From: Candidatus Bipolaricaulota bacterium
GTDB taxonomy: Bacteria > Bipolaricaulota > Bipolaricaulia > M55B111
Direction: 5' to 3'
NCBI GenBank assembly: GCA_018400715.1
Contig: JAGYME010000004.1
Coordinates: 11,468 to 75,467, forward strand
DNA length: 64,000 bases
Shown here: piece by piece, positions 16,329-48,084 of the stretch
Layout: each line of letters starts with the position of its first letter
How positions within the stretch are numbered: the first letter of the stretch is position 1
Position numbers and translations under genes: made by a program
Notes under the pieces: generated by a model
What the model saw: only the letters and a program-made list of their open reading frames with translations
The model's database searches: none
What the model was told of the DNA's origin: nothing

Positions 16329-16583
16329 CTAATCATCCTCGTCTTCGTCCATTCCGGGTACGGGGTCGTAACCACCGGGGTTTAACGGGTGACAGCGCAG
16401 GATCCGTCTGATACCCAGATAAAGCCCCTTAGTTGGGCCGTGGCGCTCTATCGCTTGCTTGTTGTACTCCGAACAGGTTGGGTAAAATCTACAGGTATTG
16501 GGAAACCCTGGAGATATTGCCCTCTGGTAGAACTTAATAATTCCCAGCAAAGATGTCTTTAACAGTTTGTCTATCCTGAGCAA
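16329..16583 (-). CDS. yidD: Membrane protein insertion efficiency factor
   Basis: [35 protein letters not shown]; TTG 16583 after GAGGGGG (alternative start 16613). Confidence 0.92.
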
Positions 16584-17802
16584 ATCTATATGAACCCCCC
16601 TCAACTGATTCAAGTTTACCAGGTACGTCTGCTACGTCCAACTCTCCGACGGTAAGGTCACAACCCAGATTTCCACTGAGTGAAGGTAGGCTCCTGTGAC
16701 CCTCCGAGGTAATTAATTCTTTGATATAAAGTCCGCTCTCAGCCCAGAGATAAACTTCGTAATTCCGGTCTCCGGCCCTCCTTCCGCTGGCGCCGAACAC
16801 CCGCCTGACTCTAACGAGGTCTGATCTTCTATGGGCAACTCTGGTCGGTGTTCGTTGAAATATCCTTCCCTGAATTTTCCGTAAGCCCTCCGCGAAATCA
16901 TCTGCGCCTATCTCGACTTCTGAGTCTACGAGGGCCCGATATATCTTATCGGGTTTAGCGCTCTTGATCGCTTCGACCGCTCCCTTCGCGACGATTCTTA
17001 AGTTTCTGATCTCAAGATCTTCGGACTTTTTGGTCTCCTCCTTGAGGTCATTTAGATCAAGGCTCCGGATTCTCGGTTCTCGTAACTCCACGACGAACGG
17101 TCGCCCTCCGCCAAGGCATAGGACGTCCACGTCCTCCCTTCCCCCTCCGTGAAAGACGGACGATTCCGAGCGGCTAAGGGACCGGGCGGGCGAAGAGATT
17201 ATCTCTTCGACGGAATTGGAGTAACCCATCTCCGGCCAGTCCGTCTGTGGGATCCCCCGGGTGAGTTTTCGATATCTACCGTAGACGTAGACGGGGCGGA
17301 GTTCAATTTCGATTCGGTCGTTTTCGAAGTCCAGGAGTACGGTCAAATCAGGAGTATCGAAGTCCGCCTCGACCGTTATTCCCCTCTCCGCCAGGTTATC
17401 CCTGAAGCGTTTCCCCAGGGCGCGGTTGACGGCGTGGCTGAAGTCCTCTGCGTTCTTGAGGTTATATTTCTCCTCCAGACTTTCCTGGTTCCGTTTCACC
17501 ACTCTCCTTAACCTGGTGCCAAACAGGAAGGTGGAGAATTCGTAACCCTCAACCGTCTCTATAGTCCTTTCTACCCAGGAGTCGAGGTCCGAGCAGAGGC
17601 CAAAGCATATATTGCAACTATCGTCCTCCACGATCGGTTTATCCATGACCATCCCCGCGACGGTCCTCAGGGATTTCCCCCGCTCCCTGTTGGTTAGCCC
17701 GTGGCTTAGCTCCCCGAAGAGCCTTCCCAGGCAGCTGTCACAAATTTCGTGGTCCTCCAGGATCCTTGCTGCAGTTGAAACTACGTCGGGCTCTTTGCTC
17801 AT
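16534..17802 (-). CDS. pus10: tRNA pseudouridine(54/55) synthase, Pus10 family (archaeal type)
   Basis: N-terminal CDSCLGR..C..C, THUMP-like region, [47 protein letters not shown]; ATG 17802 after AAGGAGG. Confidence 0.9.
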
Positions 17803-17956
17803 ACCTGCCTCCTTATATAGGTCGTTATTCCGCACCGAACAGAAGATATTACTAAATATCTGGGCCCTTTTATACCGGGTTGAGTTAGCTTTGACGATCT
17901 TGAGTCGGCATTGTTTGTCCTGGGGGAGTCGGAAGGGAAACCTACGGGTTTATTGC

Positions 17957-18048
17957 TGGCGGAGGGGGTGGGATTCGAACCCACGGCTGAGTTCCCACTC
18001 AGCAATGGCTTAGCAAGCCATCGTCTTCGGCCACTCGACCACCCCTCC
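17957..18048 (-). tRNA. tRNA-Ser(GCT) with long variable arm and encoded CCA
   Basis: GGAGGGGTGGTCGAGTGG...ATGGC TT GCT AA GCCAT...GGTTCGAATCCCACCCCCTCCGCCA. Confidence 0.97.
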
Positions 18049-43085: not shown

Positions 43086-44546
43086 TTACGAAAGAGGGCT
43101 TCCCTTGATGATGTTTTCCGCCTCAGCTATCGCTTCTTGCCGACTGGTGATATCACCAGCGTAGATCATCTCGTGTAATTCATCGAGAACCTCACCCAGT
43201 CTTGGCCCCTCCGACAGACCCAGGTTCTTGAGGTCGTCACCGTTAATAAGCTTCCGCGCGGTTCCCAGGTCCTCCAGGTCCTGGAGGTGTAGTAGCAGCT
43301 TCGTGAGGCGCTCGACTACCGGAAGCCAACCCTTCGAGCCGTGAACGCTGGCTTCGCTGTCGGCGATTATCGTCTGCAGTAACGATGTAAAGTAGTTGAA
43401 CCTCTCCGCCGGGCGGACTATTGGAAACTCCTCCTCCTGGTTGTACCTTACAAGCTTTACCTGTTTGGCTCGTTTCATCTCCTGGAGGATCGAGCCCCTC
43501 ATGTGGTTCCCGACTATCCACGTTAATTTCTTCGTTTCTTTGTTGGACAGCCGTAACCTCTTAGCTATCCTGCCTGCCTGTTTCTGCCCGATCAACTCGT
43601 GCCCACCCAGGTGTCCCCCCTTGTTTCTCCGATAAGCTTCCGCCTTCCCCACGTCGTGGAGAAATGTGGCCAGTTTAACCAACGGCGTGAACCTTAACCT
43701 GTCCGCGACCTCAAGAGCTTGGAAGCTGTGCTCGAGTACGTCGCCTTCCGGATGGTATTCCTCCGGCTGAGGCACTCCGTCGTTGTCGGCCATCTCAGGG
43801 ATGATCTCTTTCAGCAACCCTAATTCATGGCAGGTCCTCATACCCCAGGCCGATCTGGGGGTTTCGAGGATTTTAAATAGCTCCAGATTTATTCTCTCCC
43901 AGGATATGCGGGTTATCTCCTCGGAAAGGTGATCGATTGCCTTATAGGTTTCTTCCTCTATTGCTGCGTCGAGATCGCAGGAGATTCTGATCCCCCTTAG
44001 AGGTCTGAGGTAATCCTCCTGAAATCGATCGATCGGGTCCCCAATTGCCCTGATGACTCGATTTCTTAAGTCCTCGATCCCGCCGACGAAGTCGTAAATT
44101 CTGCCCTCAAGGTTGACGGCTATTCCGTTCACCGTGAAGTCGCGCCTTTCGATGTCCTCCTCAAGGGAATCTACCAGTTTAACCTGGTCCGGCCGTCGGC
44201 CGTCGTATCCCGATTCGCTGCGATACTGAGCGATTTCGTATTCCCTGCCGTCAGGGGCGATGGCGATGAGGACGCCAAATTCCTCTCCGACGCCTACGAA
44301 GTTGAACCCGGGTAGGTGCGATCTAATTTGGTCCAGGCCGGCCGACGTGGCGATGTCAACGTCCGTCTTCTCAGGATCGAATTCGTAATCGTTGAATATT
44401 AAAGACCGCAATAGGTCGCGGATTGCCCCACCAACTATTACGGCTTGAAAGCCCGATTTTGATAAGTTGGCAAGGATCTCCTCGGCATACGGCTGATGTT
44501 CAAATAGTCCCGAGAGGTCAACTTGGTCCATTCTTAACCTGTTCAA
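43086..44546 (-). CDS. cca: CCA tRNA nucleotidyltransferase with HD domain
   Basis: VGGAIRD, DVDIAT, RRDFTVN, FQEDYLR.LR, HPEGDV..HS, LHDVGK; alternative start 44531. Confidence 0.9.
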   Translation of the reverse strand: MNRLRMDQVDLSGLFEHQPYAEEILANLSKSGFQAVIVGGAIRDLLRSLIFNDYEFDPEKTDVDIATSAGLDQIRSHLPGFNFVGVGEEFGVLIAIAPDGREYEIAQYRSESGYDGRRPDQVKLVDSLEEDIERRDFTVNGIAVNLEGRIYDFVGGIEDLRNRVIRAIGDPIDRFQEDYLRPLRGIRISCDLDAAIEEETYKAIDHLSEEITRISWERINLELFKILETPRSAWGMRTCHELGLLKEIIPEMADNDGVPQPEEYHPEGDVLEHSFQALEVADRLRFTPLVKLATFLHDVGKAEAYRRNKGGHLGGHELIGQKQAGRIAKRLRLSNKETKKLTWIVGNHMRGSILQEMKRAKQVKLVRYNQEEEFPIVRPAERFNYFTSLLQTIIADSEASVHGSKGWLPVVERLTKLLLHLQDLEDLGTARKLINGDDLKNLGLSEGPRLGEVLDELHEMIYAGDITSRQEAIAEAENIIKGSPLS

Positions 44547-44555
44547 TTTAGGTGA

Positions 44556-44990
44556 TCAAAATTTGAACATGTCCCTCAACTTGGATATAAAAGACGAACT
44601 TTCTTCTCTTGTCATTTCCTCGTAATCTGCGCCGTCGAGGACCCTCCCCTCGTTTTCTGCCAACTCAACCATTTCCTCCCATTTGTTGTTCTCCTTGATC
44701 GACTTTTCCCACTCCTCGGCAAACTGAGTTAACGTCTTCAGGGCCTTGTCGACGCTGAAACCGCCGCCCGGGCGCGGGGATTGTTGCAGGTCCTTACGAA
44801 GTTCACCCAGTCCTCCTGGCAAAGGCCTGATATGCACCTTGTCCTCAAGCCTGACGGGTACGAAAGTCGTCGCTTCACTTATCAGTCCGTAAGTGGAAAG
44901 GTTTATGGAATTGAGGGGCAACTTCTTCGTGAAATCGTTGTCAGTGCGAATGAATTCCTGCTTGACAAATTCTCGCCATTCTTGTGCCAT
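44556..44990 (-). CDS. Hypothetical protein
   Basis: 144-aa ORF with GGAGG RBS filling the ribF-cca gap; no recognised motif. Confidence 0.7.
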   Translation of the reverse strand: MAQEWREFVKQEFIRTDNDFTKKLPLNSINLSTYGLISEATTFVPVRLEDKVHIRPLPGGLGELRKDLQQSPRPGGGFSVDKALKTLTQFAEEWEKSIKENNKWEEMVELAENEGRVLDGADYEEMTREESSSFISKLRDMFKF

Positions 44991-45047: not shown

Positions 45048-45938
45048 TTAGTCTGAGAGGATTTCTCTCGCCTGCTCTACAATTCTCTTGATAGCCCCGC
45101 TAAGTTCTGCCCTGTCACGGTAACGAATGCTCGGAGAGATAAATTTTATCAAATCTAGTTCGACGTCCTCCCCGTAAATATCATTATCGAAGTCAAAAAT
45201 GTGAACTTCAACCTGCGTCTTAGACTCGTTAAACGTCGGTTTCTGGCCAACGTAAACTACTCCTTTATGGCTCTCGCCGTTGACTCTGACGAGTGCAGCG
45301 TAACTACCCGACGCTGGTCTGACGACCCGTTCGTCTACGTTCAAGTTGGCTGTGGGGAAGCCGATGTCCCGACCAATTCGGTTCCCGCCGACTACCTCCC
45401 CGTAGATCGCTGGGGGGTTGCCTAAGAGTTCTCGGGCCCGCTGGACGTTTCCTCTCTCCATTTCTCGTCTTATCCACGTGCTGCTGATGGCCCTCCCTTC
45501 ACTCTTTACTTGCTCTATTGGGTGTATCGTGAACCTTCCGTCCGAGAGTGTGTAAAGTTTGTCTAAGGAACCAGCCCTGTTAGCCCCGAACCTCCAGTCG
45601 GTGCCGACAATTATCGCTCCTACGTGGAGTTCCTGGACAAGCACATTTTCCACGAATTTCCTGGGGCTATAGTCTTTTACCTCTTCAAAATCGTGGACTA
45701 CCACCTCGTCGACGTATCCTTTGAGGGTACGAATCTTCTCTTTGGGGGGCATCAGCAGTGGCGGTCGGTTTCCGGTAAAGTACCGCCGTGGGGGTATTCG
45801 GTAGGTATACGCGGCGCTGGTCAAACCCCTCTCCCTGGCGACCTTTTTAGTCTCCGACAGTAAGGCCTGATGACCAAGATGGACCCCGTCAAAGGTTCCA
45901 ACCGCCAGCGCGACGTTGATAGTATCAAAGTTATGCAT
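45048..45938 (-). CDS. ribF: Riboflavin kinase/FAD synthetase
   Basis: GTFDGVHLGHQ, DWRFG, ISST.IR, GFPTAN, VEVHIFDF..DIYG. Confidence 0.97.
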   Translation of the reverse strand: MHNFDTINVALAVGTFDGVHLGHQALLSETKKVARERGLTSAAYTYRIPPRRYFTGNRPPLLMPPKEKIRTLKGYVDEVVVHDFEEVKDYSPRKFVENVLVQELHVGAIIVGTDWRFGANRAGSLDKLYTLSDGRFTIHPIEQVKSEGRAISSTWIRREMERGNVQRARELLGNPPAIYGEVVGGNRIGRDIGFPTANLNVDERVVRPASGSYAALVRVNGESHKGVVYVGQKPTFNESKTQVEVHIFDFDNDIYGEDVELDLIKFISPSIRYRDRAELSGAIKRIVEQAREILSD

Positions 45939-46899
45939 TTATACGTTTGTTTACCTCGGAGAGGACCCGTTTTCGTACCTTTTCCAACTCTCCTTCGACG
46001 AGGCAACCAGCGGCTACGGTATGGCCTCCTCCTCCGAACTTGCTGGCTACCTGGCTGACGTCAAAGCCTCCCTTTGACCTCAGTGAAACCTTGACTCTAT
46101 TTTCGGGTAGTTCCTTGAATACACAGGCAACCATCGCTCCCTCCGTCGTCCGAAGGGTGCCGATTATTCCCTCGGTATCCTCGCCGGTTGCGTTAACTTC
46201 TTCCAGAAGGGAAGGAGTTATCGTTGTCCAGACGACTCCGTTTTCAAATTCCGCCTCCGAGAGGACCTTGCCCAGCAACTGGAGCTTTGTGAATGGTTCC
46301 CGTTCGTAAAGGTTAACTATGACTGACCTCGCGTTGGCGCCACTCCGTAGGAGATTTGCTGACCTTTCCATTACTTCTGGGCCCACGTTATCGTTTCTGA
46401 AAGAGGAGGTGTCGGCGATTATTCCTGCGTAAAGTGCTGTTGCCATGGGTTCGTCAAGGTTTAGGCCCATGTACTCGATCAGTTCGGCGATTATTTCTGT
46501 CGTTGCGGCGACGTCCTGGACGTGATTGATAACTCCGAAGTTGTCATTGTCTTTGTGATGGTCAATGTTGATTATCGGTAGTCCCGCGAACAATCTCTTG
46601 CCCGCGTTGCCAAGCCGGTCAAGGTCGCTACAATCGACAACTATACCTACTTCGACCCCAGATAACTCGTTTTCGTCTATCTTACCGGGTTTCTTGACCG
46701 CATCAGCTCCTTTTAGAAAGGAGAGATTTCTGGGGACGCCGTCTACGTTTACCAGAATAGTCTTCTTGCCCCGCTGACGGAGTGCCCGACTTAGTCCTAG
46801 TTGGCTGCCTATCGCGTCAGCCTCCGGGCTGCGGTGAGAGCCAATGATGAACTTCTCGTGGCGAGAGATTACGTCTTCTACCTCTTTAAGTCTGTTCAT
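45931..46899 (-). CDS. DHH/DHHA1 phosphoesterase (NrnA-like nanoRNase/pAp phosphatase)
   Basis: H..P..DA.GS, VDC, IDHH, DT..F, SLRS..GGGGH..AAG. Confidence 0.93.
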   Translation of the reverse strand: MNRLKEVEDVISRHEKFIIGSHRSPEADAIGSQLGLSRALRQRGKKTILVNVDGVPRNLSFLKGADAVKKPGKIDENELSGVEVGIVVDCSDLDRLGNAGKRLFAGLPIINIDHHKDNDNFGVINHVQDVAATTEIIAELIEYMGLNLDEPMATALYAGIIADTSSFRNDNVGPEVMERSANLLRSGANARSVIVNLYEREPFTKLQLLGKVLSEAEFENGVVWTTITPSLLEEVNATGEDTEGIIGTLRTTEGAMVACVFKELPENRVKVSLRSKGGFDVSQVASKFGGGGHTVAAGCLVEGELEKVRKRVLSEVNKRINA

Positions 46900-47061
46900 G
46901 AATAAATCCTTTCCTCACAAAAGGTGAGATTTTGGTGAGTTAAAAACTAATAACGAAGGTATCCAAAAACCAATATGTAGGTAATTATATCGAGAGCAGA
47001 TAGTTAATTCAAAATAGAGGTAGTTGCAGTTCCTCAGGGTTGGCGTTTACAATATTTTATC

Positions 47062-48084
47062 ATGGACTTCGAAGAAGATAACGAAAGAGCGGTGAGTCCG
47101 GAAAGGAAATCGGAGGACACGGGCTTGAACAACCTTCGGCCCAAAAGCCTTGATGACTTCATCGGTCAAGAGGACGTTAAACAGCGACTCTCAATTTTAC
47201 TTGAAGCTGCGCTGAATCGAGGGGGGACCGTTGACCATATATTGTTTCACGGTCCTCCGGGACTGGGAAAGACGACCCTTGCCCACATAGTAGCCTATGA
47301 AATGGGGGTAAATATTAAGACTACTTCCGGTCCCGCAATCGACAAACCGGGAGATCTGGCAGCGATAGTCAGCAACTTGACCCCCGGAGACATCCTCTTT
47401 ATTGACGAGATACACCGTCTGAGGCGAAACGTCGAGGAGGTTCTCTACCCGGCGATGGAGGACTTCAAAATCGATATAGTAATCGGAGAGGGACCTAGCG
47501 CCCAGTCGATCAGGCTGGACGTCCCCCCATTTACCCTGATCGGAGCGACTACGAGGACCGGGTTGCTTACCTCGCCCCTGAGGGATCGCTTCGAAGTCGT
47601 GCTCCACCTCGAATTTTACGACGTCCCGGCGATCGAGAAGATAGTCTTGAGGGGCGCTAACCTACTGGACGTTGAGATTAACGATGGCAGGGGTGGAGCC
47701 AATGAGATCGCCCGGCGGTCACGGGGAACGCCGAGAATTGCCAACAGGTTGTTAAAAAGGACAAGAGATTATGCTGAGGTCCGTGCGGACGGATATATCG
47801 ACCGAGAGGTTGCCAGAGAAGCGCTGGAGATGCTTGGTATCGACGGAAGCGGGCTGGACAAACTGGACCGGCGAATATTGGAGACCATTACCGAGAACTT
47901 CGACGGCGGGCCGGTGGGGCTGGATACCATATCCGCTGCCCTGTCCGAGCAAAAAGACACGATCTCCGAGGTATACGAGCCTTACCTGTTGACGAAGGGA
48001 TTTATCGAACGGACCAGCCAGGGAAGGAAAATCACCAAAAAAGGTCTCGAACACCTGGGTTATGACGACAACAGGCTGCTTTGA
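47062..48084 (+). CDS. ruvB: Holliday junction helicase
   Basis: [53 protein letters not shown]. Confidence 0.98.

Follow-up and report, generated by a model that had tools for sequence, protein, structure and literature searches.

The tRNA pseudouridine-55 synthase TruB has probably been displaced throughout the bacterial phylum Bipolaricaulota (Acetothermia/OP1) by a non-orthologous enzyme, the archaeal-type pseudouridine synthase Pus10, in what appears to be an ancient event. The analysis concerns a stretch of 64,000 nt (referred to as the window throughout) from Candidatus Bipolaricaulota bacterium assembly GCA_018400715.1 (contig JAGYME010000004.1, positions 11,468 to 75,467), in which the gene of a DHH phosphoesterase directly adjoins ribF and a pus10 gene is found on the same stretch. 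The original prediction, made from the letters of the window, was that TruB might have been lost here and replaced by the archaeal enzyme. This claim was supported, with TruB detected in none of 130 genomes of the phylum and Pus10 in 125 of them, and the displacement would extend well beyond this genome. The features on which the argument rests are as follows, all of them on the minus strand.

16534..17835, minus strand: pus10, archaeal-type tRNA pseudouridine-54/55 synthase and proposed replacement of TruB (Pus10_C, E = 1.4e-54; Pus10_THUMP_arc, E = 1.3e-18)
45048..45938, minus strand: ribF, bifunctional riboflavin kinase/FAD synthetase (FAD_syn, E = 8.7e-36; Flavokinase, E = 1.4e-34)
45931..46899, minus strand: DHH/DHHA1 phosphoesterase, NrnA-like (DHH, E = 1.2e-14; DHHA1, E = 3.1e-13)
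45931..45938, minus strand: 8-nt overlap ATGCATAA of the ribF start and the DHH stop, read directly from the sequence, at the position that truB occupies in other phyla

The absence of truB is established. The window belongs to contig C111 of a 2.19-Mb assembly (176 contigs, 88% complete), and TruB was searched for in this genome, in 41 related genomes (8 families, 17 genera), in a phylum-wide set of 130 Bipolaricaulota genomes with at least 85% completeness (71 with at least 90%, and two closed single-contig assemblies) and in 14 control genomes (10 bacteria and 4 archaea). In the hidden Markov model search that had been suggested as a check of the prediction, the TruB_N profile (PF01509) gave no match in the window's own genome, in the 41 relatives or in the 130 phylum genomes, with 14/14 controls positive, and the TruB equivalog model TIGR00431 was likewise without a match in the own genome and in the 130 (E ≤ 0.01; controls 14/14). 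Both models recognised even the distant archaeal homologue Cbf5 in all four archaeal controls. No intact truB was found elsewhere in the genome by tblastn either: a genuine TruB protein from an outgroup contig (described below) returned nothing at E ≤ 0.1 against the whole window assembly, in which DHH, RibF, RbfA and PNPase of the same outgroup contig were all recovered.

A truB gene that is present and was simply missed, through incompleteness of metagenome-assembled genomes (MAGs) or through divergence beyond the reach of the models, is scarcely credible. The window genome is indeed only 88% complete and split into 176 contigs, with pnp at a contig edge, but two models gave 0/130 in a set with two closed and 71 at least 90% complete genomes while still finding Cbf5 in 4/4 archaeal controls; together with the empty tblastn search this makes both explanations untenable. 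For annotators, then, a missing truB in Bipolaricaulota MAGs is a real absence and no assembly gap. The only sub-threshold TruB_N match in the phylum (genome G054, 19.6 bits) was rejected, being an RluD-like protein with S4 and PseudoU_synth_2 domains. Separately, one Methanocellales MAG (G159, reached through L092) had no TruB_N (Cbf5) match, although Cbf5 is normally present in archaea, likely owing to incompleteness, which illustrates that absence in a single MAG is weak evidence.

The presence of pus10 is equally well established. Pus10_C exceeded its cut-off in 125/130 phylum genomes, including 71/71 with a completeness of 90% or more, and among the 14 controls in the four archaea only, so that all ten bacterial controls were TruB-positive and Pus10-negative. 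A scan of one genome per species of the Genome Taxonomy Database (GTDB), with a Pus10 labelled 'Caldiserica' as query, returned only Bipolaricaulota-like and archaeal matches. Bacterial matches carrying other NCBI labels were 49–100% identical to this query, as were those labelled Bipolaricaulota or Acetothermia; the odd labels included Caldisericota, Neomarinimicrobiota, Thermotoga and Thermotogae (on ten noted matches and others). Those of the oddly labelled proteins that were included in the tree nested within the clade of one family of the phylum (f6 in our numbering of its families, f1 to f10) with 100/100 support, and TruB was not found in any of 19 further Pus10-positive bacterial MAGs. 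Independent bacterial Pus10 lineages were therefore rejected, since nesting, identities and lack of TruB all point to mislabelled MAGs, and the NCBI labels of these GTDB representatives are most likely wrong. This suggests that full-length bacterial Pus10 is confined to one lineage in the genomes covered by the scan. In the approximately unbiased (AU) test a single Bipolaricaulota Pus10 clade was not rejected (p = 0.57), and the constraint even improved the log-likelihood by 3.2 units over the free tree.

An anticorrelation of pus10 with truB had been proposed as a further check, and its outcome was divided. Complementarity of the two genes was perfect, and in the phylum set TruB was found in none of the 130 genomes and Pus10 in 125. 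All bacteria seen here that are positive for Pus10 and negative for TruB fall into one lineage, however, so the pattern counts as one evolutionary event only and cannot be read as a statistical anticorrelation.

The DHH-ribF junction is very probably the former site of truB, as gene order inside and outside the phylum indicates. On the coding strand DHH ends ...CGT ATA AAT GCA TAA and ribF begins ATG CAT AAC..., with the ATG of ribF leading into the TAA of DHH; the overlap of exactly 8 nt without an intervening gene, as originally described, was borne out by both the open reading frame (ORF) coordinates and the sequence, and it leaves no room for a gene or pseudogene. The distance to pus10, originally put at about 28 kb, was also close to the mark, at 27.2 kb from ribF. 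Outside the phylum, the nearest DHH orthologues do lie in the conserved order rbfA-DHH-truB-ribF from which the prediction had set out, as seen on an outgroup sample of three contigs that carry the most distant DHH homologues among the matches listed (39–40% identity). The contig L008/L009, whose protein cluster holds a Candidatus Omnitrophota MAG, reads rbfA-DHH-truB-ribF-rpsO-pnp, and truB there overlaps each of its two neighbours by 8 nt; L120 reads nusA-ylxR-infB-rbfA-DHH-truB-ribF; and L121, with a protein cluster of Tissierella (Bacillota), reads rimP-nusA-ylxR-infB-rbfA-DHH-truB up to the contig end. The window DHH protein, whose close relatives NCBI names NrnA, was 39% identical to the rbfA-linked DHH proteins of L008, L120 and L121, compared with 26% to a second DHH protein of L008, a DHH-CBS-PolyA_pol fusion. 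The sequence comparison thus identifies it as the orthologue of the rbfA-linked DHH that normally precedes truB.

The synteny within the phylum is an established observation. DHH and ribF were adjacent in 13/13 genomes sampled from families f1, f2, f3, f5, f7, f8, f9 and f10 (8 of 10 families) and also on four contigs from metagenomes, including one of Fraserbacteria, a recurrence that makes the adjacency more than chance. In the window rbfA is not upstream of DHH, and a divergent ruvB takes its place. The same ruvB lies divergently at about 0.1–0.7 kb from DHH in eight of the 13 sampled genomes and on contigs L010, L011, L122 and L123, at 1–4.6 kb in three more of the 13, and was not seen in the region fetched for the remaining two; it marks a relocation, specific to the phylum, that parted the DHH-ribF pair from rbfA. 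In the window genome rbfA follows infB and a DUF503 gene on contig C102 and is itself followed by a radical-SAM gene, and pnp stands at the start of contig C154.

As for the 8-nt overlap, it reflects ordinary operon coupling and is no conserved scar. Its reading as the trace of a deletion was rejected, since in relatives the two genes overlap by 8 nt or 11 nt or stand 1 nt apart, and a truB pseudogene remnant between DHH and ribF was likewise discarded, as no sampled genome has a spacer long enough to hold one. It is also conceivable that the adjacency has nothing to do with truB, the ancestor having had DHH-ribF with truB elsewhere, or the pair having rejoined in the course of the rearrangements towards ruvB. 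We consider this unlikely, while giving it some weight: the operon is broken on both sides of the pair in the window genome (rbfA on C102, pnp on C154), DHH is dispersed in families f6 and f4, and the outgroup consists of three contigs only. Against it, all three outgroup contigs, from at least two phyla, place truB exactly between DHH and ribF, and deletion of the middle gene is a more parsimonious account than an independent rejoining of just the two genes that flank it. Outgroup order and phylum-wide adjacency taken together favour the junction as the old truB site, with the clean excision of truB as the simplest reading, rather than a demonstrated one, given the dispersed DHH of f6 and f4.

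The window pus10 is intact. Its ORF has no internal stop (the start may be 11 codons further in, at 17802), and the Pus10_C match spans profile positions 1–231 of 232. The motifs were read from an alignment with human PUS10 (2V9K) and archaeal proteins, and are established as observed: the protein retains the GREDVD catalytic motif with the catalytic Asp, the four N-terminal zinc cysteines (CDSC and CNIC pairs in conserved columns), the thumb HRR residues and the YIKEL core. A 21-residue CxxC..CxxC forefinger insert that follows the PQTDWP motif is missing only from the window protein, from that of G001 and from one metagenomic relative (P0003), and is present in the congener G002, in all other Bipolaricaulota Pus10 proteins examined and in most archaea. 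The best matches of both Pus10 and DHH were MAGs of Candidatus Bipolaricaulota, Acetothermia and Fraserbacteria; identity of the window Pus10 to archaeal proteins was 38–46%, and the NCBI pipeline already labels such proteins Pus10. The gene sits between the bacterial glyQ-glyS and lexA-dinB pairs in a window of even composition (GC 0.47–0.55). Linkage of glyS or lexA to pus10 was absent in 54 other Bipolaricaulota loci, and a conserved pus10 neighbourhood was accordingly rejected. The interval from pus10 to lexA also holds a tRNA-Ser(GCT) gene (17957–18048, minus strand, like pus10), 121 nt upstream of pus10.

The substrate of the enzyme is intact as well, as 41 of 42 predicted tRNA genes in this genome keep the T-loop G53-U54-U55-C56-R57-A58-N-N-C61 (G-UUCRANN-C). 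The exception is an 87-nt tRNA-Pro(GGG) call on contig C98 without a canonical T-loop, which may be a false call. The 3' CCA is encoded in 31 of the 42 genes. The other bacterial T-loop enzymes were missing from the set of relatives: TrmFO exceeded its cut-off in 0/41 genomes, the matches to the model being MnmG-like ORFs of about 620 residues, and no convincing 5-methyluridine methyltransferase of TrmA/RlmD type was seen in the 41, with one borderline partial match (23.1 bits, cut-off 23) in one of them. The archaeal TrmY family (PF04013, Methyltrn_RNA_2) was found full-length in 22/22 genomes of families f2–f8, and in 0/19 genomes of the window's family f1. From the lack of TrmFO and TrmA-type enzymes and the occurrence of TrmY in most families, the bacterial T-loop set appears to have been swapped for the archaeal one.

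Published work on the archaeal enzyme gives these gene contents a likely meaning. Archaeal Pus10 introduces pseudouridine-55 both in vitro and in Escherichia coli truB trmA mutants; deletions in the forefinger abolish pseudouridine-54 and spare pseudouridine-55 activity; and the Pyrococcus Pus10, naturally poor in forefinger, makes only pseudouridine-55 (PMC3753934; PMC7912444). With its forefinger lost, the window copy is predicted to make pseudouridine-55 only. From homology and the published complementation by archaeal Pus10 we infer that Pus10 makes pseudouridine-55 here. A wider proposal, on which we are evenly divided, is that Bipolaricaulota tRNAs carry an archaeal-type T-loop, with pseudouridine-54 or its 1-methyl derivative and pseudouridine-55 produced by Pus10 and TrmY, without ribothymidine and without TruB, and that stepwise simplification (first of TrmY, then of the forefinger) has given a series from modification of positions 54 and 55 to modification of 55 only.

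Several observations weigh against displacement of TruB by Pus10. The activity of Pus10 on Bipolaricaulota tRNA is a prediction from homology, and complementarity that stems from a single event cannot by itself prove functional replacement. The backbone of the Pus10 tree lacks resolution; monophyly is no more than 'not rejected', and the naming of a donor lineage was given up for this reason. The DHH gene stands alone among unrelated genes in 7/7 sampled genomes of f6 (including a closed one) and f4, and in the window genome the ancestral operon is broken also between rbfA and DHH and between ribF and rpsO-pnp. Finally, E. coli can do without truB in the laboratory, and loss without replacement is conceivable.

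If truB had been lost in this way, Pus10 might serve pseudouridine-54 only, or a target other than tRNA, and U55 would be left unmodified. Besides the tolerated deletion in E. coli, the retention of the forefinger and TrmY, both related to position 54, in most of the phylum speaks for this possibility. We nevertheless judge it improbable, because pseudouridine-55 formation is common to all characterised Pus10 enzymes, and in no mutant is the activity at 55 lost separately from that at 54 (PMC3753934). Moreover, the window Pus10 lacks the position-54 determinant and its family lacks TrmY, yet all catalytic residues are intact, which argues that position 55 is the retained function; the strongest support from within the data for position 55 as the essential task of Pus10 is that the protein stayed conserved after the position-54 apparatus was lost.

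A takeover of U55 by an enzyme of the RluA/RsuA family, with Pus10 as an incidental presence, is a very remote prospect. The window genome does encode two PseudoU_synth_2 proteins, its only other pseudouridine synthases of RluA/RsuA type, but these are of rRNA type and represent a minimal rRNA-type complement, and retention of Pus10 throughout the phylum would stay unexplained. No member of the RluA/RsuA family is known to target U55.

The course of events under displacement of TruB by Pus10 can be sketched as follows. In the stem lineage of Bipolaricaulota, truB would have been deleted from the conserved rbfA-DHH-truB-ribF operon, a deletion that would have joined DHH directly to ribF, with translational coupling of the two; the operon would also have broken on either side of this pair, which may later have been dispersed in f6 and f4. 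The archaeal-type Pus10 would have entered through one horizontal acquisition followed by vertical inheritance, and isomerisation of U55 in the tRNA T-loop would have passed to it, as part of a putative exchange of the whole bacterial T-loop enzyme set for the archaeal one (Pus10, accompanied by TrmY or not). The window's family would have lost TrmY again, and in the window's sublineage the Pus10 forefinger would then have been lost too, with a predicted outcome of pseudouridine-55 only.

As an enzyme, the window Pus10 is an ordinary member of its family; what is unusual is the host and the complete absence of TruB. It shares the architecture of archaeal Pus10 (PsuX; COG1258, TIGR01213 type), with an N-terminal Cys4 zinc site, a THUMP domain and Pus10_C with GREDxD. 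Within that family the Methanocaldococcus jannaschii enzyme acts at positions 54 and 55 and that of Pyrococcus furiosus at 55 only, and the window protein resembles the latter in having no forefinger insert. Unlike its archaeal counterparts it has its gene on a bacterial chromosome, with glyQS, lexA, ruvB and uvrB as neighbours, and an activity that is predicted only, and unlike archaea, the controls of which all gave a match to the TruB family (Cbf5), Bipolaricaulota are without any TruB-family protein. Compared with the canonical nusA-infB-rbfA-(DHH)-truB-ribF-rpsO-pnp operon, the window keeps the orthologous DHH and ribF, adjacent and translationally coupled, whereas truB is missing from its site and from the genome, and the pair has parted from rbfA and rpsO-pnp and lies divergent to ruvB. 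Families f2–f8, with a forefinger-bearing Pus10 and full-length TrmY and without TrmA or TrmFO, resemble the archaeal Pus10-TrmY route to 1-methylpseudouridine-54; the window's family, by contrast, has no TrmY and the window Pus10 no forefinger, so that the route seems reduced to position 55. In mammals, one report describes Pus10 and a TruB-type enzyme as functionally redundant for pseudouridine-55 (PMC7749629); mammals keep both enzymes in a Pus10/TRUB1 division of labour, whereas Bipolaricaulota keep only Pus10.

A 2021 review described Pus10 as 'not in Bacteria' (PMC7912444), and full-text searches of the literature turned up no paper connecting Pus10 to Bipolaricaulota or Acetothermia, and none on a bacterial phylum lacking TruB. 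New here are the outgroup evidence for the truB site, the extent of the DHH-ribF adjacency at family level and the loss in steps, first of TrmY and later of the forefinger. Both truB, a near-universal bacterial gene, and the tRNA pseudouridine-55 that it provides belong to the best-conserved traits of bacterial translation, and a phylum without TruB, TrmA and TrmFO, running on Pus10 and mostly also on TrmY, is a natural experiment. It bears on whether TruB matters for the modification or for its role as a tRNA chaperone, on how readily enzymes of core tRNA maturation pass from one domain to another, and on what the Pus10 forefinger and TrmY each contribute. The first cultured member of Bipolaricaulota has been described together with its closed genome, in a preprint without mention of pseudouridine (bioRxiv 10.1101/2025.11.21.689855), and with such a strain the prediction is directly testable.

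The remaining features surround the DHH-ribF pair on both sides.

43086-44990, minus strand: ORF of 144 residues and a CCA-adding enzyme (PolyA_pol/HD), downstream of ribF
46984..47012, minus strand: candidate promoter-like site TTGAAT-17-TATAAT in the ruvB-DHH spacer, upstream of DHH-ribF (consensus scan, 10/12 matches, weak)
47062..48084, plus strand: ruvB, divergent from DHH (RuvB_N, E = 5.7e-78)

In the window ruvB is followed by uvrB. The 144-residue ORF 3' of ribF is conserved (64% identical in the congener G002) and has no significant Pfam match, the best being DUF5799 at E = 0.004, under the cut-off. On the Omnitrophota-like contig L008 the DHH-CBS-PolyA_pol fusion mentioned above, a protein of 887 residues, is encoded just upstream of rbfA; with the CCA-adding enzyme near ribF in the window, DHH and nucleotidyltransferase genes thus recur around this operon.

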